Below are positions 10,282 to 29,104 of a DNA stretch of 64,000 nt, in pieces. Location: positions 2,047-66,046 of the forward strand of contig MWEM01000010.1 in NCBI GenBank assembly GCA_002071085.1, given 5' to 3'. A model generated the notes under the pieces. It worked only from the letters and a program-made list of their open reading frames with translations. It made no database searches and was not told the origin of the DNA. This DNA is from Thermotogota bacterium ADurb.Bin062 (GTDB taxonomy: Bacteria > Thermotogota > Thermotogae > MWEM01). Numbering within the stretch: position 1 is the first letter of the stretch; each line of letters starts with the position of its first letter. The translations under genes were made by a program, and so were the position numbers.

Positions 10282-10290
10282 AAGCTCCCC

Positions 10291-12504: not shown

Positions 12505-13118
12505 CTTATCGAAATAGTAAAATGGGTTATGGTTCGTCGGAATGTTGGCGCGAATACGTTGGATCCCTCGGGAGTCCAGCCGTTTGAGCGGAATGGTGAA
12601 CCGGTCCAGAGTTCTTTTTGGAGCTGGAGCATCATACTTTTCAGCGCGACGACGAGGATACGTTTCCCTTTACCGCGCGCGATCAGCTCGCTCATCAACA
12701 CGCCGGCTTCGAGCGTTTTCCCGAGGCCGACACCGTCTGCCAGCAGAATGCGTTGACGGGGCCGGGCTAAGGCGCGCTGGGCGGGCTCCAGTTGGAAATC
12801 GATCACATTCATCGCCGCTTTGTGCCCGATGCGCAAGACGTTTCCCGGCGGGGTTCGTCGACGCAGGAGGCTCTCGATGTAGAGCCGCGACTTCCTAAAC
12901 ATCGGCGACCGGTCGACAACGAACTGGGTATCAGCCGGATCGATCACGCGTATCTCCTCGAGATCGGACAGGAACGCGGCCTCCTGCCCACGCACAAAAT
13001 CGGAAACGCCCGTCACGCTTAAAATGTATTTCCTATCCGCGTTGTAATCGGCCCGCCGAACTACCCACTCCTCACCGCGTACCTGTATCCGCATACCGGG
13101 CGCGTATATCTGTGTCAT
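12501..13118 (-). CDS. SNF2-family helicase (DrmD-like), N-terminal fragment (motifs I-Ia). Reading is lost after ...LQLQKELWT at an A5/T5 homopolymer.
   Basis: Walker A LADGVGLGKTLEAG, motif Ia ILVVALKSMMLQLQKELW. Adding one base in the T5 run (12615-12619, plus strand) joins this frame to the downstream fragment and gives a continuous SNF2 protein. Confidence 0.7.
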   Translation of the reverse strand: MTQIYAPGMRIQVRGEEWVVRRADYNADRKYILSVTGVSDFVRGQEAAFLSDLEEIRVIDPADTQFVVDRSPMFRKSRLYIESLLRRRTPPGNVLRIGHKAAMNVIDFQLEPAQRALARPRQRILLADGVGLGKTLEAGVLMSELIARGKGKRILVVALKSMMLQLQKELWTGSPFRSNGWTPEGSNVFAPTFRRTITHFTISIR

Positions 13119-13170
13119 TTTGTGCCCCCCGTTTGGTTTTATTGGATGGACCTATCGAGCGTGGAACCGG

Positions 13171-15186
13171 CTATACCTTCCAGAAAGAGAAGAGCATGAA
13201 CACGATCAACGCCACCCATTGGCTCGCGAATACCATCAATTGAAAGAAGTAGGTGCGATCCATCTTTTCTTTGACGCGCTTCTCAAGGGCAGTTAGGCGG
13301 TCATCGAAGGCCTGTTGTTTCTCGGCCGTTTTCTTTTCCAGTTCATCGAGCGCGGTCAGAGCGCTCTCGAACGCGGCGGTTTTTTCGGTCAGGGTTGCGA
13401 TCGACTCGCTGTAATGGCCTTTCAGCAGCTTAGGTAGGGCTTCAACGGTTTTCTGCGTTAAAACCGCGAGGTTTCGGGAATCCTGGAGAGAGGCGTGGAC
13501 ATTTTCATCCATCTCTCTCAGGGCATCCAAAGTCTCCCGATTTCCTTCGCCAAACGACGCAATGAGGTTGCCAAGCTTGCGGTCAACCGTTGACACGAAT
13601 GCGGGATCCAGCCGTGATAAACCGGTTTTCTCATCAACGAGCGAGCGCAGGCGTGCGCCCAAGTCGCCGGTCGAATCGGCGAGGCGCTTCACCAAGTCAG
13701 AAAACTCGGCGTGCTCCGCGCGGTCGTGCTCCCGTTGATTTGCGGCCTCTTCGGCTAATTGCCGTATCGCGGTTTGAATTCCACCGCTCTCAGTATTGAT
13801 TTTGCTTGTGTTTTCGAGCAGTTCGGTGTATGTCGAGCTGATCAAATCGGCGAGTTCTTTCGTTAAGCTGGACAGCCCGGCGATTTCCGCGCGGCCGCGC
13901 TCCCGTTGATTTGTGGCATCTTCGGCTAACTGCCGTATCGCGGTTTGAATTCCACCGCTCTCTTCATAGATTTTACGCGTGTTTTCCAACAGTTCGAGCT
14001 GCGCTACGCCTGCCGATTCGGCAAGATCTTTCACCAGGCCGGACAACTCAGTGAGTTTTGCCAAGTCGTGCTCCCGTTGACTCGCGGTCTCCTCAGCTGC
14101 TTGCCGTATCGCGAGTTGAATTTCACCGCTCTCTTCGCTGATTTTGCTTGTTTTTTCGAGCGACTCGGTTTGTCTTGAGCTGGTCGATGCGGCAAGTTCC
14201 TTAACCAATCCGGCTAACTCGGCTACTTCTGTTCGATTCTGTTCCCATTGACTCGCGACCTCTTCGGATACTTTCCGTATCGCGGTTCGTATCACACCGC
14301 TTTCTTCATTGATTCTTCTTGAGTTTTCAAGCAATTCAGTGTGTGTGGAACTGATCAAATCCGCGAGTTCCTTCGCCAAGTCGGATAGCTCGGCGAGATT
14401 CGCGCAGCTGTGTTCTCGCTGTTTCGCGGCTTCCTCGGTTGCTTCGCGAATAGCGGTATGAAGCTTCTCGCTTTCCGTATTGCCCCTTCGGGCATTCTCG
14501 AGCATTTCCGCTTGCGTGGCGCCAAATGATTCCGCGAAGCCCTTCACCAAGCCGGACAGCCCGGCGATTTCCGCGCGATCGTGTTCACGTTGATAAGCGG
14601 CGCCTTCGGCTAACTGCCGTATCGCGGTTTGAATTCCACCGCTCTCTTCATAGATTTTACGCGTGTTTTCCAACAGTTCGAGCTGCGCTACGCCTGCCGA
14701 TTCGGCGAGATCTTTCACCAAGCCGGACAACTCAGCGAGTTTTGCCAAGTCGTGTTCCCGTTGATCAGTGGCCTCCTCAGCCGCTTGCCGTATCGCGGTT
14801 TGAATTCCACCGCTCTCTTCACTGATTTTGCGCGAGTTTTCAAGCAATTCAGTGTGTGTGGAACTGATCAAATCCGCGAGTTCCTTTGCCAAGTCGGCAA
14901 GCTCGGCGATATTCGCGCAGCTGCGCTCGCGCTGTTCGGCTGCGCCTTCGGTTGCTTTTTGTAACGCAGCGTGAAGTTCGCCACTTTCCGTATGGATTCT
15001 GCGCGTGTTTTCCAATAGTTCGGCGTACTTGGCGTTGAGCTCTCGGACGGACAGCGTGAACTCGTTCAAAACGGCAACGAGCTCGTTATCCGCGTTTCCC
15101 AGCGAAAAACCCTCCTCTAGCCTTCTTTCTTCGTTTCCATCGATATCATTCATTCGCGCCCTCCTTCGAGCATTTCTTCTATCCAT
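13171..15186 (-). CDS. Tail-anchored coiled-coil protein built of ~45-aa tandem repeats with a C-terminal transmembrane helix. The start is probably the ATG at 15153.
   Basis: Repetitive low-complexity sequence (...LAELSGLVKDLAESAGVAQLELLENTRKIYEESGGIQTAIRQLAE... repeated more than 6 times). C-terminal hydrophobic FFQLMVFASQWVALIVFMLFSFWKV. RBS GAAGGAGGG lies 5 nt before the ATG at 15153 and inside the 3' end of the upstream helicase gene. Confidence 0.7.
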   Translation of the reverse strand: MDRRNARRRARMNDIDGNEERRLEEGFSLGNADNELVAVLNEFTLSVRELNAKYAELLENTRRIHTESGELHAALQKATEGAAEQRERSCANIAELADLAKELADLISSTHTELLENSRKISEESGGIQTAIRQAAEEATDQREHDLAKLAELSGLVKDLAESAGVAQLELLENTRKIYEESGGIQTAIRQLAEGAAYQREHDRAEIAGLSGLVKGFAESFGATQAEMLENARRGNTESEKLHTAIREATEEAAKQREHSCANLAELSDLAKELADLISSTHTELLENSRRINEESGVIRTAIRKVSEEVASQWEQNRTEVAELAGLVKELAASTSSRQTESLEKTSKISEESGEIQLAIRQAAEETASQREHDLAKLTELSGLVKDLAESAGVAQLELLENTRKIYEESGGIQTAIRQLAEDATNQRERGRAEIAGLSSLTKELADLISSTYTELLENTSKINTESGGIQTAIRQLAEEAANQREHDRAEHAEFSDLVKRLADSTGDLGARLRSLVDEKTGLSRLDPAFVSTVDRKLGNLIASFGEGNRETLDALREMDENVHASLQDSRNLAVLTQKTVEALPKLLKGHYSESIATLTEKTAAFESALTALDELEKKTAEKQQAFDDRLTALEKRVKEKMDRTYFFQLMVFASQWVALIVFMLFSFWKV
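13748..14960. repeat. Intragenic tandem direct repeats (~135-bp unit with a 684-bp higher-order period) inside the coiled-coil gene. 13920-14032 and 14604-14716 are 100% identical over 113 bp.
   Basis: Direct comparison of the sequence lines. ttcggctaactgccgtatcgcggtttgaattccaccgctctcttcatagattttacgcgtgttttccaacagttcgagctgcgctacgcctgccgattcggc occurs twice. The sub-motif ctgccgtatcgcggtttgaattccaccgctctc recurs about 6 times. Confidence 0.9.
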
Positions 15187-18100
15187 TCTACCGCATATTT
15201 CCTCTTTAGTATCTCATGATACCTTTGGTTGGTGTAGTTACGCAAACAGCCGTAACAAGAGGAATCCCCCTCTTCGCCCCCACATAGGCAACCCTTTAAA
15301 AAGGACTCGGTAAGCTTGAGGATTCCCTCGAACGCTCCATCTTCCATACACCAGCGTATGTGACCGGCGCCCCCCGCGACGTTGTCGAACAGAAGCAAAT
15401 TCGGATACGACCTGCCCTCCACGGGAAAGACGATTCCATCGAGGTCGTTCCGGTCTATGTCCAGGAACAGGCTAACCCCCTCTAAAAGCGCGTAGAGGAT
15501 AGAAAGCCAGTATTCTTTCTCATCGTTTGTCCGTTTATTTTCCGGAGGGGTGATCTCCAATATTTCCGTTTTAAACTGGTAGCCGAGCGCTTTTCTACGG
15601 GCGATCTTTCCTGGGCACCTCTTGCCTTGAGGGTTATTGTGCTCTCTTTCCAGCGTCTTTTTGGCGTCGGAGTAACCGCAAGCCAAACAAACGTTGAACC
15701 CCCGCGGGCCGCCGGGATTGATGGTCACCAAATTGCCCAACATCGTTTTCAGGTGAACCGGATACCTCAGCAGGAGGGTTTTTTCTTCGATGGTGTACTC
15801 TTCTTTCCCGAGCAGGCAGCGCGTTTGAGAGAGCTGTGTCTTCTTTATCACACCCGCTTTCTCGGGCTGTCCGGAGATGAACCCAAACTCGGGGAAAAGG
15901 TAATCGCCAACGTTTAACTGACTGCCGCAAATCTTGCACGTCTTGGTTGTCGAGCGCTCCTTGATCGACACCTTCGAAAACCCGCATTTTCGGCAGAAGG
16001 CATAACTCTCCTCGATCAACGCCTTGTCGGGCACTTTCTTGATATACTGCGTCGACCACTTCTGCTTGTTCGCGTAGACGGGATTGTCCGGCGCATATTC
16101 CCAAAGGGCGGTTTTCATATCCCGCGAGAGCTCCAAGTCGTCCATCTTTTCGTCGAAGGGCGCCATCAATTCTATGACGTCGACCGGAAACCCGTAGCGA
16201 GGTAGAATCCCTTTTCCGGCCAGGTATTGCATGAGATTACGGCCTAAAAGGGTTTGCACCTTTCTATGGAGCGTGTCCGCTTTTCTGAAGGTTCTCTTTT
16301 TGGTCGCCGCATCGATCAAGTCCGTCAAGACCCGTATGTCTTCTTTCAATTCTTTGCCGATGTGGTAGAGAGAAGCGTGCGTAACCGGAGAATCGGAAAA
16401 CAGGAGGTACGCCCAGGGCAAAAATTGTTTTTGGCGCAGCTCGTGTTCGGTAGCAGGAATGGTCTCTCGTATCGTTTTGTCCAGCTCCTCTTGATGCGTC
16501 GCGACGAAGTGTTCGAAGCGCGCGACCCCTTCGAGGTCATCGTCCGTTTCCGGAAAAAAGAAGGCCTTCACGTCTTTGAAATGGTTCGGATACTGACGCC
16601 AATACTCGGCCAATGCGATCGCGGCCATATGACGATAGCGTATTTTCTCGTTTTCCAGCACAAAGGAAGGCGGGGCAATCTCGCCTTTAATCATTTTTTC
16701 CGGGTCGCTAAAGAAGTAACGGTCGTGAGGCCTTCGTAACGCGTAGGTGAGAATGAAAGCCGGATTGGAGGTTCTCCTGCCGGCCCGCCCTGCCCTTTGC
16801 AGGTAGTTCGACGCGGTTGGGGGCACGTTTTTGAGAAAGATCGTGTCCAAATCCCCGACGTCCACGCCTAACTCGAAGGTCGTCGAGCAGCTGAGGATCT
16901 GTATTTTTTTATGATAGAAGTCTTCTTGAAACTCCCGCGCTTTTTCATATTTAAGCTGGGCTGTGTGCTCTTCCACTCGAAGCGGGGAGAGCTCGAGCGT
17001 GCGGTACAAGTCTCGGTAGTGGTTAGGGCCTAACGCCGAAAAGTTCGTCTCCCTCACCGTCCCTTGACATCCATAAGAAGGACAGACCCCCCGTACCGCA
17101 AAAAAGAAAAGTTCTTTACACCGATCACATTGGTAAAGTTTCATATCCGGAGTCAGGAGCGGCGAAAGGATTTCCAGGGCGTCTATCTTCAATCGCTTCC
17201 CGCTTTGGTTGCGCTTTGTAAAAGAGGTTTCGAAACAGTCCCTCCAATCCGGATGGTCGAATTCTTTCCAAATCCATTGAAGTAACTCCGGGACCTCCTC
17301 CTTTCTCGCTTTTGGAAATAGGCGGCGTAAATAATCGGAGCGCGCGTTTTCGAAACGATAGGGGACCCAACTTTTCACGCCTGCTTGGGTTTGCGCCGAC
17401 AGCGTCATCAACGTTTTCAAATTCCTCGGCGCGAAAAACTCGTGTTCGGGTTCTATGTCCGGTAAGTAGGTCAAAGCGCCGCACTTTCTGAAACTGGAAA
17501 GTAAGAGTTGATACAGGCTGTGGGCCTCTTCCGGAGTCAAATTCCAAGGCGCGTTCAGGAGCGGGCTTCGCTTTTCGAGAGACTCGTAGAGTCCTTTGGA
17601 AAGAGGGACCTTGAAGCCCAGGAGCCCGGCGCCTTCGAGACCCGTGCGCCGATCGTAACTCATCGCTTCGTATTGTGTCCATAGGTAAGCGGTCGTCTCT
17701 ATTGTCTGCTTATCCATTTGGTAGTCTTCCGGGAGGCGTTTTTTGGCGAATTCCGCCAGGTTTTTGACGATCCAATCGTTCTCGATGGCCTTTTCTCGAT
17801 AGGTTTCGAGCGTGTTCACCAAAATGCGCCTCCAGAAGATCCTGTCATAACTCTCTTGAAGGTACGGCGCGAAGTACGCCGCGCCTTGGCGACTGTCCGA
17901 AAAGACGATAAAGCCGTTTTGCCGCTTCCTTTCTTCGGGAGACAGGCCGCTATACAGGTTCTGAAAGAGGGCCGTGGCGATAACGCTTCCCGAGGCGTCC
18001 GCCCCGTCTAAAAACCGCCAAAGAACGGGGGTTAGACTTGATTGCGCGCCGCAATTCAAGCACTTGTTCACGCGTCCTTCCTTCGATTTTGCCTTTTTTG

Positions 18101-19946
18101 CGGAAAGAAGAGCCACCCCGCAGTCGCAGGCGTTCCCGATCAAGTTTTCTTGAGAGACCTTCCCACATCGGGGACAGATTTGGAAAAGGTTGCGAGTATC
18201 CCGTTCTTCGGATGCCCCATCTTCTTCATCCTCATTTTCGGCAACCGCTCTGTCGGGTTCTATGAGGAGATACCAGTCGAGAAATTCGTCCCCTTCGGTT
18301 TGATCGTATTCGGTTTGTCTCAAAATCCCCGTGTCCTTGTCAACGGTCCCTGTCAAATAGACCGCCCCGCAGTTTTTACAGGACCCGATCTCGAAAAACA
18401 ACCGCTCTGTGGAAGAGTCGTCCATCTTCTCTATGGTTTTCCGTTCGAGTTGGAGGGTTTTATCCGGGTAGAAAGAGACGAAAGCGCCTTCCAAGGCCTT
18501 GAGAAATAGATGGTACTTCATAGAGGACAAGGAGGTTTGCGGAAAGAGGTGGCACACGAGGTTTATCAGTAGGACCAAATGGAAGGACAGTACTTCACGT
18601 TGCGCGTCTTTTGGAAAGAGGATTTCCGTTAGTTTGGAAAACTCACAAGGTCCGCTTTCCAATATTCGATTGACCTCTTTCACCTTCTCGTCGTTTTCGA
18701 CAATCCTCAGAAACGTGTCCGAGAGGTCGAAAGGCGCATTCGGTCCTTCCGCCCTTTTCAATGTCGGCGATCCGTCGGGATTGTGAGCGCGGTTTCCGAT
18801 GGTCTCCCCTATCCACCGGCTCAATTTCTCAGTCACCAAGGAGTTGGCTTCTCCTTTAAAATAGGCGATCAGATCGGTATAGAACTCCGGTGGGATAGTG
18901 ATTGGCCCGGCTTTGACTTGGAGCTCCCTCGGCGTGTAGGGCAATTTTTCGCCGACGATGATATCCTGACGCTCCGGATCGTTTTTGTCCCATTCGACGC
19001 GAGTGTGAAAAAGGTTTTGTGCGAATTGCGCGAGCTTCGAACACGCGTCCGGGGAATAGCCGAGAGAGGCGCTCGTGCCGAAGTATTGCAGGGCTTGGCC
19101 TTGCGCGCTTCGCCCGATACGGTGAGCGAGACGCCGCAGCAGCAACGCGGTTTCGATCCCTTTCGCGCCGCCGTAGGTGTGCACTTCGTCCAATATGAGG
19201 AACTTCCAAAAACGCGCGTGTTCTCCGTCGAAGAAAACGCAATCGTCCGGTCTCAGGAGCAGGTATTCGAGCATCGCGTAGTTGGTGATTAACAGGTGCG
19301 GCGGCGAGCCACGCATCCGAGCTCTACTGATGAGCTCGTTGGGTAAGGGGTCGTGCGCGAAAAGCCTCACGAATCGGCTCAGCGCGCTCTTTTCCTCTTG
19401 TTCGGTTTCCCCGGTATAGATGCCGAAGGTCACTTCCGGTATCCTTTTCAGAATACTGCGCAAACGAAGTAATTGATCGTTTGCCAGCGCGTTCATCGGA
19501 TACAGTAAAAGGGCTCTGACTCCGGGCGTCAACTTGGATTCTTCGATCTGCCTGAAAAGGTAATTCAAAACCGGGATCAGGAAGGATTCCGTTTTCCCGC
19601 TTCCCGTACCGGCGGAGACGATGAAGCTTTTTTTCTGCACAACCGCCTTTCTCACCGCCATTTCTTGATGCGCGTATAACGGTCGATCGGAAGGCAGCGT
19701 TTCTTGGTCGATCCTAAGGAAGATCTCGGAGAGGATTCCCTCCCGCACGAGCTCCCCGATCGATTTCCCAGTTCTATAGCGGGACAAACGTTCGATGTAG
19801 GGCCCTTTGCATAGCGCGTTTTCTTTTTCGATTTCTTCTTGGAATTTACCGTGTAGTTCCGGGTCGGAGAGGTGGAAGGTCGTCAGGAGATAACTACGGT
19901 ACTTTTCCAAGACGTCTTCGGTCATTCTTATCGGATTAATCGGCAC
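15150..19946 (-). CDS. DEAD/DEAH-box helicase fused to a C-terminal DUF1998 domain (DruE / DrmA-DrmB / YprA-MrfA family), 1598 aa.
   Basis: LYAHQEMAV, Walker A SAGTGSGKTESF, LLLYPMNALANDQ, DEVH box LILDEVHTY, GTSASL, motif VI LQRAGRAGRR (~16770-16800). DUF1998 signature VCLACGYS...CPGK...LLLFDNVAGGAGHI...CLCGG...CYGCL (15170-15800). GTG start with GGAGG 7 nt upstream. The gene overlaps the upstream gene by 11 nt. Confidence 0.85.
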   Translation of the reverse strand: MPINPIRMTEDVLEKYRSYLLTTFHLSDPELHGKFQEEIEKENALCKGPYIERLSRYRTGKSIGELVREGILSEIFLRIDQETLPSDRPLYAHQEMAVRKAVVQKKSFIVSAGTGSGKTESFLIPVLNYLFRQIEESKLTPGVRALLLYPMNALANDQLLRLRSILKRIPEVTFGIYTGETEQEEKSALSRFVRLFAHDPLPNELISRARMRGSPPHLLITNYAMLEYLLLRPDDCVFFDGEHARFWKFLILDEVHTYGGAKGIETALLLRRLAHRIGRSAQGQALQYFGTSASLGYSPDACSKLAQFAQNLFHTRVEWDKNDPERQDIIVGEKLPYTPRELQVKAGPITIPPEFYTDLIAYFKGEANSLVTEKLSRWIGETIGNRAHNPDGSPTLKRAEGPNAPFDLSDTFLRIVENDEKVKEVNRILESGPCEFSKLTEILFPKDAQREVLSFHLVLLINLVCHLFPQTSLSSMKYHLFLKALEGAFVSFYPDKTLQLERKTIEKMDDSSTERLFFEIGSCKNCGAVYLTGTVDKDTGILRQTEYDQTEGDEFLDWYLLIEPDRAVAENEDEEDGASEERDTRNLFQICPRCGKVSQENLIGNACDCGVALLSAKKAKSKEGRVNKCLNCGAQSSLTPVLWRFLDGADASGSVIATALFQNLYSGLSPEERKRQNGFIVFSDSRQGAAYFAPYLQESYDRIFWRRILVNTLETYREKAIENDWIVKNLAEFAKKRLPEDYQMDKQTIETTAYLWTQYEAMSYDRRTGLEGAGLLGFKVPLSKGLYESLEKRSPLLNAPWNLTPEEAHSLYQLLLSSFRKCGALTYLPDIEPEHEFFAPRNLKTLMTLSAQTQAGVKSWVPYRFENARSDYLRRLFPKARKEEVPELLQWIWKEFDHPDWRDCFETSFTKRNQSGKRLKIDALEILSPLLTPDMKLYQCDRCKELFFFAVRGVCPSYGCQGTVRETNFSALGPNHYRDLYRTLELSPLRVEEHTAQLKYEKAREFQEDFYHKKIQILSCSTTFELGVDVGDLDTIFLKNVPPTASNYLQRAGRAGRRTSNPAFILTYALRRPHDRYFFSDPEKMIKGEIAPPSFVLENEKIRYRHMAAIALAEYWRQYPNHFKDVKAFFFPETDDDLEGVARFEHFVATHQEELDKTIRETIPATEHELRQKQFLPWAYLLFSDSPVTHASLYHIGKELKEDIRVLTDLIDAATKKRTFRKADTLHRKVQTLLGRNLMQYLAGKGILPRYGFPVDVIELMAPFDEKMDDLELSRDMKTALWEYAPDNPVYANKQKWSTQYIKKVPDKALIEESYAFCRKCGFSKVSIKERSTTKTCKICGSQLNVGDYLFPEFGFISGQPEKAGVIKKTQLSQTRCLLGKEEYTIEEKTLLLRYPVHLKTMLGNLVTINPGGPRGFNVCLACGYSDAKKTLEREHNNPQGKRCPGKIARRKALGYQFKTEILEITPPENKRTNDEKEYWLSILYALLEGVSLFLDIDRNDLDGIVFPVEGRSYPNLLLFDNVAGGAGHIRWCMEDGAFEGILKLTESFLKGCLCGGEEGDSSCYGCLRNYTNQRYHEILKRKYAVEWIEEMLEGGRE

Positions 19947-22900
19947 GGGTCAACCTCCGGAATGCGAAGTATACCCTTTCTACGAGGATATCTTCGCGGC
20001 GATGTTTTTCTATCCAGTAGAGGAGTTTCTCGTCCACGTCATAATAGGCGCCGTCCCCTTCTTTGTCTATGAGAAACGGAAGGGTTTGATGATCTTCGTT
20101 AATGAAAAAGCGGACCGGGTTCGTATTCAGCCAATATTTTCTATAACCCTTGTCATCCAACCAGACGATATCGCCTTCGTAGGGCTCTCCCTCCTCAATC
20201 TTATCCGTGGGCCTGATATTCCGGATGACGCATTTTGGTCCGGCCAGGGCGTATTCTCGGTCTTGCTCATCGGTGACCTTGAGGATCTCCAAGCCCGCAT
20301 CCTTTGCAAATATATCATCTTTTGTGAAGGCAAGTGAAACATCGGGTTCGTGGAGACCGTGAAATTCCCGCGCGACCCGGTTACCAACAACCCATTCGAC
20401 GGTGAAAGGGCCGGAAGGAAATGCGCGCGTTTGAACCTTAAAACTGTACTCGCTCCGCCCAGCGTCAAGAAAGGCTTCGAAGTGTTTATCACCCTCAGTG
20501 GAAAGGCGCAAGCGCAGTCCGGAGGGGTTGTCTTCACGAGACCAGCGGCAATGGACGTGAGTCACCTGCGCGTCGGCATCTTCTTGGAGCGCGACTTCGG
20601 CATCCGCGAAGGGGACGCGAAAGGAAAAGGTTGCGATCGGTGGTGTCTCGGCGTATCGAAGCCCCCGTTCGTAGATAGAAAAAGATTGCTCGGCGGTCTC
20701 GCTGGCGCGTATGTTGTCGAAAAAAGGCCGCATGTCGACGCTTAATCGATCCTTCTTCACGGAGCAACGAGTGATTTGCCCCGTTTGATCGTGTCGGCAT
20801 TCGAACTGTTTTCCCCTCAAGTCGTACGGGAGTCGGAACTCTTTTTTAAGGGGATAGCCGTAGAAGATCGGGGAGTACTCGGATAGGGATTCTGAGGTGT
20901 CTTCATCGACGAAGGGCCTTTCGAATTCGCAGGAGAACGTTAATCCATCCGAGCCGGAGGGGTTGAGCGTCAGAACGGCTTGAACCGTTTGAACCCCGGG
21001 GTCTATACGACAACGGATCTCCATGCCCCCCTCTTCCGACTGGATTTCGGAAGGATCGAGCGCGGGAAAAGAAAAATGGATTTCGTCCTCCGCCTTTATT
21101 TCCAAGCGCCCCGGCGCGTGGAGGGACCTATCCTCCGAAGACCAGCGGAATCTAAACCGCGGCAGCACCCAGAAGACCATATCGATCGGAAGCCTTTTGA
21201 CCCCGAAGATAGAGATGCGATACCGACCATAAGGGGAATCGAAAAATTCCGCGGGGCATACCTCCATAGACTCGCTCGGGCTATCGCTTTCCGCGGGGTT
21301 GTTGGCGACTTGAAAGGTTGAAACGCGTGAAGGGCCTGATTCGAGAACAACCTCCATTTTCCAGGCGCCCGCATCGCCGGTGGCCGGAGGCATCCGTATC
21401 GTCGGGCAACGGAAATAGACGTTCTCTCCACGCGCCGTGACCCCTTCGACAGGACTTTCGCTGAGCTTTCCATAGAAACCGGCCCGATAAAAAGCGAGAC
21501 TTCCACCGGTCGGGCTTCTGATTTGGAAACAGTCCGTATCCGACAGATCGAGAGCGGCGTAGTCAAAATTCGGGGCTCCATACCATCGGGTTCTGTCTGA
21601 GACCGCTTCGGCCGGTGTGATTTCGTTCTCGCCGGACAGAATGAGGTAGAGGTAGTCGGTCGCATACTCACGCTTCTTCAACGCCTCCCCGTTCTCGTCG
21701 AAGACCAGTAACGGGTACTCCTCACAGAGCTGTGGTTTTATGGAAAATTCGCGGATGGGCTCTTTGCTGTTCATCAATCTGTTCACTTTAAAGGCGCGGA
21801 TTTCTAGTGTACCGAAAAACGGTGAAATTTCGCACCGTTCCCTCTGGGTTTCTATTGAGCCGCCCTGATTAAAAAGCGAACATTCCCTGACAAAGACCTC
21901 TCGGTTTGCTTTCGCTTCCACGACGGACAGAAAGATTTTTTCTTGTTCATCAATCTCATTGAGAACGATTGGGGGGATAACGAGCCACAGCCGCTCCAAA
22001 TCGAGGTCCAACTCAAGGTAGGGAGCGCTTTGCCTGGGTGTCTGAACTATGTGAGTCCGATGTTCTATTTCGCTTCTTATGCCTTTTCTCAGCCTTTTTG
22101 AGAGTAAGGGCCACCGGTCAGCTTCATCGAGAAGCGCCTTGTCGAGGCCTTCGAGCGCGCGGATATACTCGATGGTCGACCTTATAAAAATATGCGCATC
22201 GTTTCCGGATTGGGAGAGGAAACACCGTGTTCCCTCGCACAAGAACCTATTCCTTGTAGCATCCCCAGATTCTCCGAAAGGAGGTTCTGCTGAATCTCCA
22301 AAAGGAGGTTCTGCGGGAATCTCTTGGTCTGTGAATAGAGAATCCGCGAAATCGAAGAGCGCCGTTTCTGAGAGGTTCAAAGCATCGGGGTAGTGGTTTT
22401 TTATGAAATGGTACAGGGCCTTCACGACATCCCAACTGAGAGGTCCCGCGTGCTCTTCCTTCCATTCGCGTACCACCTCGAGCTTCGCGCGAAGGTCATC
22501 CAAAGAAATCGGCTTCCCCGGAGAGAGAAGGTTTCGCACGCGGTTGATCCGGCTGACGGCTTCTTTCAATACGACATATCGGTCGATCGCTCTTTGATAG
22601 GTGTCTTTCAATCGAACGAGGCGCGTCCGATGTCTGTCTTCTTCGACGAACGGCGAGTCCGCTAAAAAGACGACCAATTCTTTCTTCAACTGGTACCGGG
22701 AGAGCTCGCGCGCTTTTTCCGCCCAGCGATTCGGCAATTCCTCTTCGATCACGCGCATCATCATAGGGTTATCAAGAAATTCGGTGTAATAGGAGGTCGC
22801 CTCCGGCGCCTCTCTGTACAACATAATTAAAGGCCAGTAAGCCAATGATTTTTCCAGAGACTTACGTAACTGGGCGGTTTTCTCTCTACCCGCGATTACT

Positions 22901-23484
22901 TCAGGCTGGTAGGATTCTTTGATTTTCCGGAGTTCTTCCGCGATCTTCTCGTCGCTCACCGGTCGATCACTTTCGATCTCAGGAAAAGCCCAGCGGATAT
23001 AGCGCGCCCATTTCGGAATGTATGAGTCGGGAACGAAACTGTGAGCGAGGATGGCCACGACGAACCGAAAGCCGGTATGAGGGAAATAAAAGCCCAGCCC
23101 ATCTCGACAGGTTTTTAGGAACAATTCTCCGATTTTTTGTTCCAAAGCTACGGAGGGTGTTTGGATGTCCAGCGCTTGAAAAATCGAACTCCAAAAGTTC
23201 CCTTCTTCATAGGTTTTGGCCCCAATATGAACGAGAAAGGCGCAGAGGGTTCCCCGGTATTTGAAATCTTCGATAGGCGATCCCCGATTCAGGAATTCCT
23301 CTTTCAAGTAAGCGCTCAATTCCGGGCGAATTTCTTCCATTTCTTGGTCCGAGAAGCCTGCGAGCTCGTAATACTTACTTTTTCTCATTGCCTTATACAT
23401 TTGAAAATCAAAAAGGGTAAGCTTCGCGCTCAACGGTATCATTCCTTTCCGAGGCGATCGCGATCTACATCGATTATACATCAT
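19936..23484 (-). CDS. Large hypothetical protein (1182 aa) with no recognisable catalytic motif. It is translationally coupled to the downstream DUF1998 helicase and may be a DruH-like partner. An alternative start is at 23442.
   Basis: A long ORF with an ordinary, non-repetitive composition (not low-complexity). It overlaps the helicase gene by 11 nt. No P-loop, nuclease or methyltransferase motif found by eye. The start codon lacks a clear RBS, so the start is uncertain. Confidence 0.55.
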   Translation of the reverse strand: MMYNRCRSRSPRKGMIPLSAKLTLFDFQMYKAMRKSKYYELAGFSDQEMEEIRPELSAYLKEEFLNRGSPIEDFKYRGTLCAFLVHIGAKTYEEGNFWSSIFQALDIQTPSVALEQKIGELFLKTCRDGLGFYFPHTGFRFVVAILAHSFVPDSYIPKWARYIRWAFPEIESDRPVSDEKIAEELRKIKESYQPEVIAGREKTAQLRKSLEKSLAYWPLIMLYREAPEATSYYTEFLDNPMMMRVIEEELPNRWAEKARELSRYQLKKELVVFLADSPFVEEDRHRTRLVRLKDTYQRAIDRYVVLKEAVSRINRVRNLLSPGKPISLDDLRAKLEVVREWKEEHAGPLSWDVVKALYHFIKNHYPDALNLSETALFDFADSLFTDQEIPAEPPFGDSAEPPFGESGDATRNRFLCEGTRCFLSQSGNDAHIFIRSTIEYIRALEGLDKALLDEADRWPLLSKRLRKGIRSEIEHRTHIVQTPRQSAPYLELDLDLERLWLVIPPIVLNEIDEQEKIFLSVVEAKANREVFVRECSLFNQGGSIETQRERCEISPFFGTLEIRAFKVNRLMNSKEPIREFSIKPQLCEEYPLLVFDENGEALKKREYATDYLYLILSGENEITPAEAVSDRTRWYGAPNFDYAALDLSDTDCFQIRSPTGGSLAFYRAGFYGKLSESPVEGVTARGENVYFRCPTIRMPPATGDAGAWKMEVVLESGPSRVSTFQVANNPAESDSPSESMEVCPAEFFDSPYGRYRISIFGVKRLPIDMVFWVLPRFRFRWSSEDRSLHAPGRLEIKAEDEIHFSFPALDPSEIQSEEGGMEIRCRIDPGVQTVQAVLTLNPSGSDGLTFSCEFERPFVDEDTSESLSEYSPIFYGYPLKKEFRLPYDLRGKQFECRHDQTGQITRCSVKKDRLSVDMRPFFDNIRASETAEQSFSIYERGLRYAETPPIATFSFRVPFADAEVALQEDADAQVTHVHCRWSREDNPSGLRLRLSTEGDKHFEAFLDAGRSEYSFKVQTRAFPSGPFTVEWVVGNRVAREFHGLHEPDVSLAFTKDDIFAKDAGLEILKVTDEQDREYALAGPKCVIRNIRPTDKIEEGEPYEGDIVWLDDKGYRKYWLNTNPVRFFINEDHQTLPFLIDKEGDGAYYDVDEKLLYWIEKHRREDILVERVYFAFRRLTRAD

Positions 23485-23657
23485 TTATTCGAGTAAAGAA
23501 AGGAACGATAAACCATTCGTCACATTGAGCGGGGTTTTCCAAAGTTAGGAAATTTGTAGTGGTACGGGGGTGCGTTTGAGGGAAGACACGCAAAAAAGCC
23601 AGGTGTTCCTTTTAAAGAAAAGATAGAAAACATACCAAACGTAGGGTCGAGAGGTGG

Positions 23658-24095
23658 TCATCGCGGCGTAAGCGTTTCATCATTTTGCGACGGGGCGATA
23701 CGCTTGGGAACGCCTGGGAACGCCAAACTTTAGTTTGGCATAGTTTTAAGTTTTGTCAGACATCCACAGGAAAAACCTGCCGACTTAAAAGTTGGCGTTC
23801 CCAGAACCCCTGCCGACTGGGAAGTCGGCGCCACCCCGGGACGCTGTGGGGGCACACAATGAGGTGACATAACAAAACGGGTTATCGCGGGGTAACCAAC
23901 GGGACCCCGCGATAACCCCTTGTTTTCTTTCCACCGCGATGACTTCCCAAAAACCTAAAACATGCCAACTTAAAAGTTGGCGTTCCCAGCAGTGCGACGC
24001 AAAAAAGTACGCCGGCTGGGGAGTCGGCGCCACCCCAGGGAGTTCTCAGGCGCTGCAAATGTGGCTTCCCTGAAATCGAGCGTTCCCAAGTGCTT
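23658..24095. repeat. Intergenic cluster of palindromic repeat modules (REP/BIME-like), upstream of the defence operon.
   Basis: Contains the hairpin+GTTCCCAG modules (ccaacttaaaagttggcgttcccag x2, ccaaactttagtttggcat, ccgactgggaagtcggcgcc x2), the gttatcgcggggtaacc...ccccgcgataacc palindrome, and the tcatcgcggcgtaagcg...gcgacggggcgatacg module. Confidence 0.8.
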
Positions 24096-24147
24096 CGCAG
24101 GTTCTGTGCTATAATCTTTCCAAACACAAACAAAGCGGGTGAAAGCA

Positions 24148-25440
24148 ATGTTCACGGTGCCGGAAAAGATAATCTACGCCTTACCGGAGCAAATAGGAAA
24201 CACCGAGCTTTTCGTTGGGAGAAAGAAGGAATTCGACTACTTTCTGGGAGATTGGTACGATTACCTGGTCAATAATATGGCTCAAAGCCAAGCGATCGTC
24301 GCCAGGCGAAAGAAAGGGAAGACGGCGTTTCTGCAGCGACTATTCAATATCCTGTGGAGCTGCCCGGAAACAGGTGTCATCCCGTTCTATTATGTGATAC
24401 AAGATAAACCTGTCACGTTGTCTGGGTTCGCGGAAGATTTCTTTACCCAATTTATGTGGCAATACCTTTCCTTTAGAGATAGGAAGGAAGAGTATCTATC
24501 TTACCCGATCGGCTTTGAAAAGTTAGCCCCACTCGTAGAAGGCGATAAGCATTTAACAGATGCGTACGAAACGATGGCGATCAAAAAGAAAGAAGACGAT
24601 TGGGATGGGATGTGGAACACAGCCAGCAGGTTGCCCGCAGCGTTGGCGACAGTTAAAAAGATGAAAATAGTCCAAATCATAGACGAATTTCAAAATATCA
24701 ACACCTATATTGTTGATGAGCGAAGGAATACGATCGGCTCTCTGAGCGGGACGTACCTGGATCTCGGAGAGAAGAGAGAGGCGCCACTCATCATTTCGGG
24801 GAGCGAGGTCCACGGGTTGCTGGAGATCGTACGAAGACTCACGGCACGGTTCGAGGAGAATGTCTTGGAGAACCTCCCGGAAGAGGAGGCGAAAGAAGCG
24901 ATTAGGAAGTACGCCGAGATATATCGGACGAAGATCGACGACATCGGTGTAGACAAACTCAGGAATCTCACCAACGGGGACCCTTTGTATATCAAAGCGC
25001 TTTTCTCATCAAAGCGCAACACTAAAAAAGACTACGTTCAAGAAGACAACATCATCGAAGTATACACGCAAGAGATCACGGGCGGGCAGATTTTCAAGAC
25101 GTGGGGCGAATACATCGCAAAGATCTTTTTGGAAGTAAACAAAAGAAACGCGAAGAGGCTCTTACTATACTTGTTTCAGGCCGGAGAAGAGCGCACTCGA
25201 GCGCAGATGATCAAAGACCTGAACCTCGATATGACCGACTCCGAACTGGAAACGAAACTACTCCAATTGATCAAAGCGGACCTGATTTCTCAGGGAGAAA
25301 CAAACTTCGATTACAAGATCGGAAAAGATAAAACCTACGAACTCGTCTTCCGGCGCCTCTTTCAAAAAGAGATCGACTACTTTGTCCCGGACATAAAGAA
25401 AGAGCTTCGTCAAGAGATGGGTGGGAACGCCAACTTTTAA
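24148..25440 (+). CDS. Archaeal-type AAA+ ATPase (Arch_ATPase/COG1672-like), C-terminally truncated paralog.
   Basis: Walker A ARRKKGKTAFLQRL and Walker B IVQIIDEFQNI. About 70% identical to the downstream paralog. Start moved to the ATG at 24148 by paralog alignment (MFTVPEKIIY), whereas the track uses GTG at 24139. The reading frame ends inside a hairpin repeat (..QEMGGNANF*), with the C-terminal domain replaced by repeat sequence. Confidence 0.7.
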   Translation: MFTVPEKIIYALPEQIGNTELFVGRKKEFDYFLGDWYDYLVNNMAQSQAIVARRKKGKTAFLQRLFNILWSCPETGVIPFYYVIQDKPVTLSGFAEDFFTQFMWQYLSFRDRKEEYLSYPIGFEKLAPLVEGDKHLTDAYETMAIKKKEDDWDGMWNTASRLPAALATVKKMKIVQIIDEFQNINTYIVDERRNTIGSLSGTYLDLGEKREAPLIISGSEVHGLLEIVRRLTARFEENVLENLPEEEAKEAIRKYAEIYRTKIDDIGVDKLRNLTNGDPLYIKALFSSKRNTKKDYVQEDNIIEVYTQEITGGQIFKTWGEYIAKIFLEVNKRNAKRLLLYLFQAGEERTRAQMIKDLNLDMTDSELETKLLQLIKADLISQGETNFDYKIGKDKTYELVFRRLFQKEIDYFVPDIKKELRQEMGGNANF

Positions 25441-25790
25441 GTTGGCAGGTCTTTCAAAGAGCAAAACCGGGGTTCTCAAGGAGGGCAAAATGAGCCAATA
25501 CGAGGTTTATCGCGGGGGTAAGTGATATTTTCGACCCCGCGATCCGCTCCATTTCTCTCTAAAAAGGGTATCGCGCCCTCGCAAAAAGAAAGGGCGCTTA
25601 CGCCGCGATGCCTGTTTAAGGTTATCGCGGGGTAAGTGATTTTTACGACCTCGCGATCCCCGCTTTCTCCCTTCTAAAAAGCGTATCGCGCCGTCGCGAA
25701 AAGAAGAAGCGCTTACGCCGCGATGCGTGTTCTCTCCGTGCCCTCTGTGTTCTCTGTGCGAACCCTTTTTTCCTTCCCCGCGCGCTCCCA
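25424..25790. repeat. Intergenic repeat-module cluster between the two AAA ATPase paralogs. It supplies the stop codon of paralog 1.
   Basis: gccaacttttaagttggc hairpin at 25427-25447, two copies of gttatcgcggggtaagtgatttttacgacc(c/t)cgcgatc, two copies of cgtatcgcgcc..cgcaaaaagaa..gcgcttacgccgcgatg, and ccctctgtgttctctgtgcgaaccc. Confidence 0.8.
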
Positions 25791-25845
25791 GCCTTCCGCT
25801 CTATGCTATAATCTTAATCAAACACAAATAAAGCGGGTGAAAGCG

Positions 25846-27507
25846 ATGTTCACGATGCCGGAAAAGATAATCTACGCCTTACCGGAGCAAATTGGAAACA
25901 CCGAGCTCTTCGTCGGGAGAAAGAAGGAGTTCGACTATTTTCTCGGAGATTGGTACAATTACCTCGTCAACATTATGGCTCAAAGCCAAGCGATCGTCGC
26001 TAGGCGCAAGAAAGGGAAGACGGCGTTTCTGCAGCGACTGTTCAATATCCTGTGGAGCTGCCCGGATACAGGTGTGATCCCGTTCTACTTCAGCGTAAAA
26101 GAAATGAACGTGACCCTGGCCGAATTTGCGAAAGAATTTTTTTCTTCTTTTGTCAACCAATGGATTGCGTATATGGAAAGAAAGCCGGAACTGGTTTCCA
26201 ATCCCTTGTACTTCGAAAGGTTAGACCGTCAAATAGAAGATGCTGAATTCAAAGAGATCTACGAATCCATCAAGGGATTTGAAAGAGTCGGGAACTGGGG
26301 ACTGATGTGGGAAACGGTGGCAAGACTGCCTTTTGAAACGGCGATAGCGAAGAAATGCAAAATCGTCCAAATTTTCGACGAGTTCCAAAACATCAATGCA
26401 TATATCTTGGATAAGCGACGGAATGTGATCGATACGATGAGCGGGTCGTACCTTGACCTTGCCGAGAGGAAAGAGGCGCCGCTCATCATTTCGGGGAGCG
26501 AAATCCACGGGTTGTTGGAGATCGCGCGAAGACTCACTGCCCGGTTCAAAGAGCTTAGGAATCTCCCGGAAGATGAAGCCAAAGAATCAATTCGGCGGTA
26601 TGCGAAGACCTCGCGGACCAAAATCAACGAACAAGCGGAGGAAAAGATATGGAACTTGACGCAAGGGGATCCTTTGTATTTCAAGGCTCTGTTCTTTTCT
26701 CGACACAACGATACAAAAGACTATACGAATGAAGACAATATCATCGCGACGTACACACAGGAGATCACTCAAGGAGAGATCTACCGCACCTGGATGGAAT
26801 ATATCGCGGCTTTTTTCCTGGGCGCAAACGAAAGGAATGCGAAACGGATTATGCTGTACCTATTCCAGGCGGGCGAAGAACGCACCCGGGCGCAGATGAT
26901 CAAAGACCTGAACCTCGATATGACCGACTCTGAACTGGAAACGAAGCTGCGCCAGTTGATCAAAGCAGACCTGATTTCGCAAGGTGAAACAAACTTCGAC
27001 TACAAGATCGAGAAAGACAAAACCTACGAACTGGTATTTAGAAGATTGTACCAGGAAGAAATTGACGGCTTTATTCCAGACATACGCAAAGAGCTGCGCC
27101 AAGAGATGGGAATCACGAGCTACGAGAAAGGGAAGTTCAGAGACTACCTCGTACGAGAACGGATCAAGAAACCGTTCAACTTGAAAGGCCTCGCGGAAAA
27201 CGGGATCGATCTCACCATCAAGCCTAAATCGATACACGAACGCGAAACGGTCAAAGTCGGCTTACGGGATCGAGAGATCGACCTGATCGTGAAAGGCAAC
27301 GTCGAAATGTGGATCGACGTGAAAGACACGAAAGGGAAGTACGGGAAACGCGAAGCGGACCGTTGGATAGAGGTCAAGAACATAATCAACGAAAAGAGCC
27401 CCAAAACCTTATTCGCGACCTACTCCCAAAACGGTTACACGGCTTCCGGGAAAGAGCTCCTCGTTTCGAACGGGGTGTACGTGCTTAAGGGGGAAGTAGG
27501 AAAATAA
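25846..27507 (+). CDS. Archaeal-type AAA+ ATPase with a C-terminal PD-(D/E)xK-like (DUF234-like) domain, full-length paralog.
   Basis: Walker A ARRKKGKTAFLQRL and Walker B IVQIFDEFQNI. C-terminal ...DLIVKGNVEMWIDVKDTKGK fits a D..ExK nuclease-like motif. The track's start at 25723 runs through repeat elements. The ATG at 25846 matches the paralog and follows the conserved gcTATAATc..gcgggtgaaagcg leader. Confidence 0.75.
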   Translation: MFTMPEKIIYALPEQIGNTELFVGRKKEFDYFLGDWYNYLVNIMAQSQAIVARRKKGKTAFLQRLFNILWSCPDTGVIPFYFSVKEMNVTLAEFAKEFFSSFVNQWIAYMERKPELVSNPLYFERLDRQIEDAEFKEIYESIKGFERVGNWGLMWETVARLPFETAIAKKCKIVQIFDEFQNINAYILDKRRNVIDTMSGSYLDLAERKEAPLIISGSEIHGLLEIARRLTARFKELRNLPEDEAKESIRRYAKTSRTKINEQAEEKIWNLTQGDPLYFKALFFSRHNDTKDYTNEDNIIATYTQEITQGEIYRTWMEYIAAFFLGANERNAKRIMLYLFQAGEERTRAQMIKDLNLDMTDSELETKLRQLIKADLISQGETNFDYKIEKDKTYELVFRRLYQEEIDGFIPDIRKELRQEMGITSYEKGKFRDYLVRERIKKPFNLKGLAENGIDLTIKPKSIHERETVKVGLRDREIDLIVKGNVEMWIDVKDTKGKYGKREADRWIEVKNIINEKSPKTLFATYSQNGYTASGKELLVSNGVYVLKGEVGK

Positions 27508-27527
27508 CGGTAACGCCAGACTTAATA

Positions 27528-27950
27528 GGTTATCGCGGGGTAAGTGATTTTTACGACCCCGCGATCCCCGCTTTCTCCCTTTTAAAAATCGTATCGCGCC
27601 GTCGCAAAAAGAAAGGGCGCTTACGCCGCGATGCCCGTGTGTGTTATCGCGGGGTAACCAGCGGGCTGACTTCGGAAGCCCACGAAGTCTCGCGATACTA
27701 ATGAAGTCCAGCAACCCGCTCGAATAAAATCGTATCGCGCCGTCGCAAAAAGAAAGGGCGCTTACCCCGCGATGCTGCGCTTTAGAACGCCGCACTTTAG
27801 TGCGGCATGTATTCTATGTTATCTCGGTGCCCTCTGTGCTCTCTGTGCGAACCCTGTTTTTTGTGAAACAAGCCAACTTAAAAGTTGGCGTTCCCAGAAA
27901 GGCAAAGACATGCCGAACTGTAGTTCGGCGTTTCCAGGCAAAACGCGCGC
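27528..27950. repeat. Intergenic repeat-module cluster.
   Basis: The same module families as above, plus ccagcgggctgacttcggaagcccacgaagtctcgcgatac, gccgcactttagtgcggc, gccaacttaaaagttggcgttcccag and gccgaactgtagttcggcgtttccag. Confidence 0.8.
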
Positions 27951-28099
27951 GTCCGGTGAATTCAACAACCCTGTTCGCCTGATGACCGCGCCCACCCAGT
28001 CACGATCTTTCCTTTTCCAGCGTGATATAATATTCTTGGAAGGGGTTATTTCATCGAGCCGTTCAAGTCGGAGCACCAAAGGAGAGATGCAAGAACCGC

Positions 28100-29104
28100 T
28101 TGACCCAAAAGGAGGGTTCGGTTGTGGTGATGAATTTTTACGAACAGCAGAAAAAGAACCTTATAAAGACCACCCTGTTGGTCTTCGTGATGCTGGCAGT
28201 CGTGACGGTGGCCGGAATAGCTTTGGATTACAGCTTTGGAACTGGGTTTTTGATCACGGGTGTTCTCATCGTGATCACGTTGATCCAAACGGTCGTTTCC
28301 CTCTCTTCAGGCGCTGGGATCGTACTCAAGTCTGTGAATGCGAAAGAAGTGAATCCCAACACCCGAGATTTGGAAGAAAAGCAACTTTTGAATATCGTCG
28401 AAGAGTTGTCCATTGCTTCGGGGACACCGAAGCCGAAGGTGTACGTGATGCGCGACGCGTCGATCAACGCCTTCGCGACGGGTAATAAGCCGGAAAACGC
28501 CTATGTTTGCGTTACGACCGGTTTACTCCAACATCTCAACCGCGAAGAGACCGAAGGCGTGTTGGCTCACGAGCTGGCGCACATCAAGAATCGCGATATA
28601 CTGTTGATGACGATGGTGAGCGCGCTTGCGGGAGGGGTGCTGCTCCTCTCCCTGATCGCGTTCCGCGGAGGGCTGACGCTTTTCCAAACGAGCGGGAGGT
28701 CCAAGAAATCGAAAGACAGCGGGAGCATCGCCGGAATCGCTTTGGCGATGCTGGTGACGGCAGGGGTGATGTTCTTGGTCGGGCAACTCAGTCGGTTTAT
28801 GACCTTTGCGATCTCCAGAAAGCGAGAGTTCCTGGCGGACGCGACCGGCGCGGAGATGACCCGGAATCCGATGGGGTTAAGTTTGGCCCTGCGGAAGATA
28901 TACAATCTTCCGGTCATCACAAAATCGGCCAACAGCGCGACCGCGCATCTCTTTATCTCCGAGCCGAAGAAGAGGAGCTTGGCCGAACGGCGTGATCTGC
29001 TCGCGAACCTACTGAGCACCCATCCGCCTCTGGTCGACCGCATCGCGGTCTTGGAAGGTAAAGATCCTCTAACCATCCAAAGAGAACTCACTCAAAAGGG
29101 ATAG
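28100..29104 (+). CDS. htpX: HtpX-like M48 zinc metalloprotease (membrane).
   Basis: HEXXH motif HELAHIKNRD and N-terminal TM helices. Downstream Glu-containing region ...REFLADATGAEMT. TTG start at 28100, or ATG at 28130, with AAGGAGG upstream. Confidence 0.8.
   Translation: MTQKEGSVVVMNFYEQQKKNLIKTTLLVFVMLAVVTVAGIALDYSFGTGFLITGVLIVITLIQTVVSLSSGAGIVLKSVNAKEVNPNTRDLEEKQLLNIVEELSIASGTPKPKVYVMRDASINAFATGNKPENAYVCVTTGLLQHLNREETEGVLAHELAHIKNRDILLMTMVSALAGGVLLLSLIAFRGGLTLFQTSGRSKKSKDSGSIAGIALAMLVTAGVMFLVGQLSRFMTFAISRKREFLADATGAEMTRNPMGLSLALRKIYNLPVITKSANSATAHLFISEPKKRSLAERRDLLANLLSTHPPLVDRIAVLEGKDPLTIQRELTQKG

Follow-up and report, generated by a model that had tools for sequence, protein, structure and literature searches.

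The 64,000-nucleotide window analysed here, part of contig MWEM01000010.1 of an uncultured Thermotogota bacterium whose lineage comes from anaerobic digesters, carries two tandem paralogous ATPase genes. The upstream and shorter one ends inside a small hairpin repeat that we term M1, the first of five repeat modules (M1 to M5) found in the window. We propose that this short gene belongs to a multi-copy ATPase-nuclease family and lost a domain long ago, instead of having been broken recently by a jumping repeat, and that a deletion of about 0.4 kb would be the simplest route to it. On the comparisons presented below we give this reading a probability of roughly 0.6. They bear on the exact junction between gene and repeat, its recurrence in other genes, and the place that M1 occupies behind full-length members of the family.

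The junction between the short gene and the repeat

The features on which the argument turns are as follows.

24148..25440, + strand: short paralog, 430 aa; AAA+ ATPase (ORC/Cdc6-like, ATPase_2-type) with winged helix; M1 supplies the last 5 codons and the stop
25421..25422, + strand: junction; G25421 is the last base in common with the long paralog, T25422 the first base of M1
25422..25453, + strand: M1 core, 32 nt; TGGGAACGCC head, 18-nt hairpin (25429-25446), GGCAGGTCTT tail
25454..25503, + strand: spacer and degenerate reverse M4; with M1, the M1-M4rev composite common to all short-form junction classes
25504-25611 and 25619-25726, + strand: two tandem M2-M3 units, the second 94% identical to 27527-27634
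25728..25771, + strand: M4 module (GTGCCCTCTGTGTTCTCTGTGCGAACCC), 91% identical to 27817-27860
25846..27507, + strand: long paralog, of the ancestral type, 553 aa; AAA+, hypervariable helical insert, winged helix, disordered linker, PD-(D/E)xK domain
27112..27504, + strand: predicted C-terminal PD-(D/E)xK nuclease-fold domain, 131 aa, missing from the short paralog
27508..27528, + strand: degenerate M1 head (CGGTAACGCCAGACTTAATAG), right after the long gene's stop and fused to the M2-M3 unit 27527-27634

The two proteins are 70% identical and collinear through G425 of the short and G422 of the long one (...KELRQEMG). In the alignment of their DNA, homology ends after GAGATGGG, at position 25421. 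Past that point the long copy reads AATCACGAGC and continues for 131 further codons, whereas the short copy reads TGGGAACGCCAACTTTTAAGTTGGCAGG (G-N-A-N-F-stop), giving a protein that ends ...KELRQEMG-GNANF*. The hairpin, GCCAACTTTTAAGTTGGC at 25429-25446, holds this TAA stop in its loop (25438-25440). Among 120 intact hairpin copies of M1 in unique contexts, conservation sets in at C(-3) and T(-2) of CTGGGAACGCC, and because the rise is so abrupt the homology break can be placed within 1 nt of the repeat's left edge. The observation made in a preliminary description of this stretch is borne out in every detail: it had the paralogs collinear to KELRQEMG, the upstream copy running through GNANF into a hairpin, and the downstream copy some 130 residues longer with a PD-(D/E)xK-like domain. 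The gene meets the repeat at the repeat's own end. Its suggestion to look for remnants of the lost domain gave none, either past the junction or elsewhere in the window. The best non-self tblastn matches of the 131-aa domain had E values of 0.73 in the spacer at 25400-25900 and 0.28 window-wide, and blastn of 27112-27504 against the same spacer and the window returned no match. Between the junction and the TGCTATAAT motif and leader of the long gene there are repeat modules only.

The long protein was modelled with AlphaFold (35-sequence alignment; mean predicted local distance difference test, pLDDT, 74.8). The model comprises an AAA+ core with an all-helical insert (residues 81-200, predicted with confidence), a winged helix, a disordered segment at 419-429 with pLDDT <50, and a domain at 430-550. 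This last domain is modelled at a pLDDT of about 85 with the order alpha-beta-beta-beta-alpha-beta (helices 430-440 and 501-517; strands 460-471, 474-484, 488-493 and 522-527). Within it D479, D491 and K493 are invariant and E438 nearly so, and Foldseek matched it, at a probability of 1.00 in each case, to NucS/EndoMS (2vld, 5gke), AF1548 (1y88) and the Can2 nuclease domain. A PD-(D/E)xK nuclease fold for the lost domain is thereby supported at the level of predicted fold and motif, and the truncation point falls in what the model depicts as a disordered linker between domains. In the N-terminal part the Walker A and B residues (GKT 57-59 and D178-E179) are invariant, and Foldseek matches were to ORC/Cdc6 chains (best E 2.4e-4) and to winged helices of the MarR/ArsR type. 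The helical insert, which lies between the Walker A strand region and Walker B (26086-26445 in the long gene), is the hypervariable segment of the family.

At the gathering score neither window protein matches Pfam PF01637; two of 17 relatives match it with E down to 2.5e-8, four of 17 match nSTAND1, and precomputed PF01637 matches exist for some relatives. No Pfam model matches the C-terminal domain, neither paralog received a name from Pfam, NCBIfam or PADLOC, and a profile search of PDB sequences was uninformative.

Age, spread and constraint of the short form

A protein search returned proteins of about 550 aa at identities as low as 53%, including one with a Bacteroidota annotation, and a scan of GTDB genomes with the long protein returned one partial locus. 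Among about 100 fetched loci (numbered with the prefix L below) there were 73 full-length copies, including the most distant homologs. Because even homologs of 52-53% identity are full length and carry the domain, the long form is ancestral. Short forms are restricted to a close clade and always have a repeat-derived tail.

All 32 of the internal 3'-truncated copies in these loci end at residue 421-422, and the junction, GAGATGG(G/A) followed directly by TGGGAACGCC, is identical to the base across the short copies. The 18-nt junction string GAGATGGGTGGGAACGCC was found in 24 loci, with four classes of downstream sequence. M1 followed by reverse M4 is common to all classes and the remaining array varies by locus; the junction hairpin is perfect in the window's class and has decayed, with two or three stem mismatches, in classes B-D. 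There are 11 distinct short coding sequences, all intact, of 429-430 codons and with the tails GNANF, GNAKL, GNAEL or GNAAF, and the junction occurs in at least seven genomic contexts, including a second locus (L008) in the window's own metagenome-assembled genome (MAG). Pairwise ratios of nonsynonymous to synonymous substitution rates (dN/dS) among the short genes are 0.10-0.32, with dS commonly near or above 1 and up to 1.9. Because one junction recurs in 11 distinct intact genes and many contexts with dS >1, the founding event is neither recent nor local. The short genes look to be under purifying selection, and their product is presumably functional. The preliminary description had read the junction as a local truncation of the upstream tandem copy, which does not fit its presence in several lineages. 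Its further statement that the repeat array had replaced the 3' end of the gene stands for M1 and reverse M4, present at every junction, and is overstated for the rest of the array.

Fresh inactivation in this family has a different appearance. In P0092 (L100 1540-1835) and P0072 (L101 1535-1780) the frame is lost part-way through the nuclease domain owing to small internal deletions; what remains of the domain still lies downstream, out of frame, and neither lesion is associated with a repeat. Another damaged copy (L006 4100-4200, the same as L008 in the window's MAG) lacks the -10 motif, the ribosome-binding site and codons 1-25, removed by a plain deletion that joins ccttccgct to caaagaaggag, and it lies directly upstream of the short-form gene P0094.

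Members of the family also exchange sequence. The DNA of the window's two genes is 93% identical over the first 80 codons and 57-82% identical beyond, and in each segment their nearest relatives differ: the short gene's codons 81-200 match the full-length copy L040 at 94% identity, and its codons 201-425 are closest to another short copy, L005. Family-wide, DNA identity averages 62-65% in segment 81-200 versus 83-86% in the first 80 codons. Because the segments differ in nearest relatives and in identity, segments pass freely between short and long paralogs. At least ten family copies were present on contigs of one sample, Ga0209718. In one pair, the short gene L017 (1-5124) and the full-length L020 (1148-6271), the 3.85-kb upstream flank is 100% identical and all 16 differences are clustered within the gene, up to 8 nt before the junction. 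We considered this pair as a polymorphism of full and short alleles and rejected it: the 3' end of L017 is a standard class-A short end, not a deletion in the L020 flank, and 140 nt identical to L020 immediately before the short-type base would allow a k141 assembly chimera. The pair represents either recombination between paralogs or such a chimera, and we use it for sequence exchange only.

How the junction arose

For the founding event we infer a deletion, not an insertion. An ancestral gene would have been joined at codon 422/423, in the flexible linker before the PD-(D/E)xK domain, to the left end of an M1 copy, by one deletion of about 405 nt reaching from codon 423 to that pre-existing M1 and removing the nuclease domain together with the stop codon and some bases of spacer. 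Read in frame, M1 would add G-N-A-x-F/L and, with the stop in its hairpin loop, leave an ATPase-only protein. The short allele would then have been kept by selection and have spread to many loci and lineages through duplication and homologous recombination with full-length paralogs, as the surrounding repeat clusters gained, lost and swapped whole modules. The starting arrangement is common in the family today. In the close clade, a complete or degenerate M1 head in gene orientation lies from a few to about 30 nt past the stop in most distinct 3' flanks of full-length genes (complete in L040 and L005, degenerate behind the long gene of the window). Homologs of only about 58% identity still have an M1-like hairpin behind the stop. 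Because M1 normally already sits after the stop codon, a single deletion would be sufficient and transposition would not be required. Events of the kinds involved are seen at these loci: a plain deletion in the 5'-truncated copy of L006, and recombination between direct M1 copies in L029 vs L033.

Several observations weigh against this reading. The right endpoint of the proposed deletion lies no more than 1 nt from the conserved left end of M1, with no usable microhomology, and joining through the shared TGGGAA would yield GAGATGGGAACGCC, not the sequence observed. For a random deletion, an endpoint at the edge of the element is a coincidence, which an insertion explains directly. A single origin is argued from the identity of the junction; because recombination is rampant, the segment comparisons cannot confirm the short forms as one lineage. 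Function of the short protein is argued from open reading frame (ORF) integrity and dN/dS only, and gene conversion from full-length copies could inflate the apparent constraint.

The alternative that survives best, to which we would give clearly less than even odds, is that M1, or the M1-M4 composite, transposed into the linker at codon 423 and that the nuclease sequence was lost afterwards, for instance by recombination between the newly inserted M1 and the one behind the stop codon, the two being direct repeats. It accounts for the break at the element's left edge, and M1 is a high-copy dispersed family with a covarying hairpin. It is absent from 30 kb in two sister species, which implies spread within this lineage, and a deletion between M1 copies of the kind that would erase a remnant has been seen between strains (L029 vs L033). 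Against it, two events are invoked where one suffices. No intermediate occurs among the 32 truncated copies in about 100 loci, nor were orphan C-terminal fragments found; there is no target-site duplication, and no filled and empty pair was found. As a transposon or miniature inverted-repeat transposable element (MITE), only a left end can be defined, with no remnant of the target on the right. Other M1 copies in the window appear outside gene-sized ORFs, save one isolated head match without a hairpin at 6611-6620, inside a 1562-aa gene; hairpin-bearing copies, their coordinates read against gene-sized ORFs, are intergenic except for the junction copy itself. Module indels in close relatives, moreover, are all flanked by repeat-derived direct repeats and point to recombination. 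On this balance we rank a deletion as more likely than insertion followed by recombination.

The junction had been put forward as direct evidence that the palindromic repeats are or were mobile. It does not serve as such directly: M1 already follows the stop of full-length genes, one deletion of about 405 nt or a recombination between direct M1 copies would yield the same structure, and the search for empty or filled sites, target duplications and intermediates found none. That the repeats have spread is supported instead by evidence independent of the short gene, namely copy number, absence from sister species and module differences between strains. An all-against-all comparison of the roughly 100 loci contained no filled and empty M1 sites where loci share 88-99.9% identity. 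It did contain 12 indels of at least 15 nt, about nine of them in repeat modules and flanked by repeat-derived direct repeats; the remaining three were unrelated short duplications or a unique 24-nt indel. Examples of the module indels are a 103-nt indel flanked by M1 (L029 vs L033), an 84-nt M2-containing indel (L019 vs L021) and a 154-nt M3-M2 indel (L060 vs L061). Between the window and L018, a strain variant, a stretch of about 100 nt in cluster C is exchanged between flanks that are 100% identical, and this difference is a recent module swap. At that place the window has an M1 variant and M4 (27776-27870), and L018 (~2200-2310) a long-loop M2 with a tail identical to window 23915-23963. 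Because they are bounded by repeat-derived direct repeats, these differences show recombination-driven turnover, not demonstrated transposition.

Comparison with an orthologous locus lacking the insertion, as the preliminary description had proposed, did not yield a pre-truncation state. In the sister species L097 and L098, whose HtpX is 83-89% identical, the HtpX-DHH gene pair is kept, and over about 30 kb both ATPase paralogs, the defence island beside them and every M1 head are absent. Because these loci are without both ATPase genes they hold no pre-truncation state, and because the whole block upstream of htpX is missing around HtpX-DHH it is a lineage-specific island.

That the short copy is a recently inactivated, decaying pseudogene seems quite improbable. 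A whole domain is missing, and the family does have wrecks, the 5'-truncated copy and frameshifted copies among them. Against this stand the 11 intact coding sequences with their low dN/dS at dS >1, the gene's own -10-like motif and leader, which are kept, and a break that falls at a domain linker. Still less probable is an assembly chimera across repeats. L017 could be one, as described above. The arrangement in the window, however, recurs in independent ENA, JGI and NCBI assemblies: 13.3 kb of the locus are 100% identical at the four loci shown (e.g., GCA_035417985.1), the exact 430-aa protein is indexed in 71 collection blocks, and 24 of the contigs that carry it were read. The junction is also present in diverged sequence contexts. 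The remaining possibility, an ancestral short form with the nuclease domain as a later gain of the long paralog, which the preliminary description had named as its refutation, is itself refuted by the norm of about 550 aa down to 52-53% identity and the confinement of short forms to a close clade.

Repeat modules, neighbourhood and known systems

The M1 core reads (C)TGGGAACGCC, an 18-nt hairpin and ATGTYTT. Its TGGGAACGCC head (10 nt) has 18 exact occurrences in the 64-kb window against 0.15 expected from shuffles. The element is an imperfect palindrome with the 18-nt hairpin placed after GGAACGCC, and at least six outer pairs are kept in 120 of 225 copies in unique contexts. Because stem positions 4-7 covary (AT/GC/TA and so on) among the 225 copies, the hairpin itself is maintained; the variants include GCCAAC/GTTGGC, GCCGAAC/GTTCGGC, GCCGGAC/GTCCGGC, GCCACAC/GTGTGGC and GCCAATC/GATTGGC. 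The conserved ends are (C)TGGGAAC at the 5' side and ATGTYTT at the 3' side, and some copies have CGTC or TGTC after the stem. Together with M2 to M5, M1 forms variable mosaics in about ten intergenic regions of the window, and the combination of the five modules varies between clusters A, B and C and among related loci. Rfam gave no family for any module, searched over the whole window at gathering scores and over 23400-28100 at E up to 1.

Copies of M1 lie at ~23.7, 30.4, 39.6-39.9, 41.5, 44.6-44.8, 48.0-48.2, 49.8-50.0 and 55.4 kb, those listed standing mostly 120-360 nt before start codons and pointing against the gene. M1 directly behind a stop and in gene orientation is found only at the window's two family genes and at 48706-49743 (otherwise one in thirty). 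This placement suggests an orientation-dependent role or an insertion bias.

Three further features precede the two genes.

23705..24040, no strand assigned: repeat cluster A, upstream of the short gene; M1 hairpins in both orientations, M5 hairpins and one M2 hairpin
24107..24115, + strand: TGCTATAAT extended -10-like motif of the short gene, a reading of the sequence that a simple promoter scan did not flag
25804..25812, + strand: TGCTATAAT -10-like motif of the long paralog

The leaders are alike, 24103-24389 (short) being 92% identical to 25800-26087 (long). Both paralogs are on one strand, between the defence island and htpX. The island (5593-23484, - strand) is directly upstream of them and holds a type IIG restriction-modification/DrmMI-like protein (1562 aa), an SNF2 DrmD-like helicase, a DruE-like (Druantia) helicase with an MZB domain (1598 aa), a 671-aa protein of unassigned function and an 1182-aa protein without a family match. 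The SNF2/DrmD-like helicase (10291-13118, - strand) is represented by two overlapping ORFs, of 205 aa (12501-13118) and 737 aa (10291-12504), which match the N-terminal and the remaining parts of one PADLOC model; this may reflect a frameshift or a natural split. Elsewhere, the short-form gene in L013 (402-4312) stands between a gene with a Bro-N domain and a PDDEXK_2/Rpn-like gene, a setting which suggests that part of the family is located in mobile or phage-related surroundings. An ORF-less group II intron (Rfam RF02003, RF00029) is found downstream of one paralog (L038 2165-2725), and its 3' part, at 94% identity, forms the left end of L018 (1-203), just before the long gene's promoter. 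L018 was tried as a test for presence of the short gene and set aside: the contig begins 270 nt upstream of the long gene, within the intron.

The M1 system consists of mosaic repeats resembling repetitive extragenic palindromic (REP) sequences and bacterial interspersed mosaic elements (BIMEs), and it matched no described family, Rfam being empty and the single published comparison giving its consensus as a figure. The likeness lies in a short palindromic hairpin with a conserved unpaired head, covariation, high copy number, an almost wholly intergenic distribution, clustering with other modules in variable mosaics, and the capacity to add C-terminal residues to a protein. The M1 head (C)TGGGAAC and tail ATGTYTT are not clearly of the GTAG or CGTC type, and M1 here marks a domain deletion, not an in-frame insertion. 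Di Nocera et al. 2013 (PMC3733652) describe REPs of the CGTC type in two Thermotogae, Kosmotoga olearia and Mesotoga prima, catalogue REPs that overlap gene ends, and note that a protein may tolerate residues encoded by a REP at its COOH-terminus or within a flexible linker. The K. olearia REP peptides VILDGRNIEF and RILDFKFAEF, from the same paper's supplement, are unlike GNANF.

The architecture of the long protein, a P-loop ATPase of the ORC/Cdc6-like kind with a winged helix and a PD-(D/E)xK-fold domain, resembles that of the 'Archaeal ATPase' proteins. In these, ATPase_2 (PF01637) is followed by a C-terminal restriction-endonuclease-like domain (DUF234, PF03008). The window proteins differ in scoring below the PF01637 threshold and in having a C-terminal domain without a Pfam match, and their family is multi-copy, has a hypervariable helical insert and adjoins a defence island without itself matching PADLOC. 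Rickettsia palindromic elements (RPE), which Di Nocera et al. 2013 also discuss, occur inside genes as in-frame insertions, with the host protein intact on either side. As with M1, a palindromic repeat adds coding sequence to a protein that stays functional, presumably so in the M1 case; here, by contrast, nothing of the gene survives 3' of the junction, and the stop codon comes from the repeat. Shyamala, Schneider and Ames are said to have described, in 1990, REP sequences at the join-points of chromosomal rearrangements in enterobacteria, with REP-REP recombination leading to duplications. The parallel is a rearrangement endpoint at a palindromic repeat without transposition of the repeat; the difference is that one endpoint here lies in unique coding sequence.

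The case is that of a REP-like element serving as the 3' end of an old and conserved ATPase-only derivative, an example of known phenomena, namely repeat-encoded gene ends and domain-loss paralogs. A gene that ends at the edge of a repeat looks like an insertion caught in the act, and the comparative data speak instead for an old, selected allele and a repeat that was probably already present. The case documents a REP/BIME-like mosaic system, a large family of segment-exchanging ATPase-nucleases and a recurring ATPase-only variant. More speculatively, and at long odds, the short form may be maintained as a nuclease-less partner or regulator of the full-length protein, within a large, hypervariable and recombining family that adjoins defence islands, and M1 may be a cis element of the family: a terminator, an mRNA stabiliser, or a DNA or RNA site recognised by the winged helix and nuclease. 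If M1 were the site that the family recognises, the family would be a candidate for an enzyme that processes or mobilises the repeats, by analogy with a REPtron. If the short form does work with the long form, the pair would amount to a natural experiment on how a nuclease effector is switched on or off.

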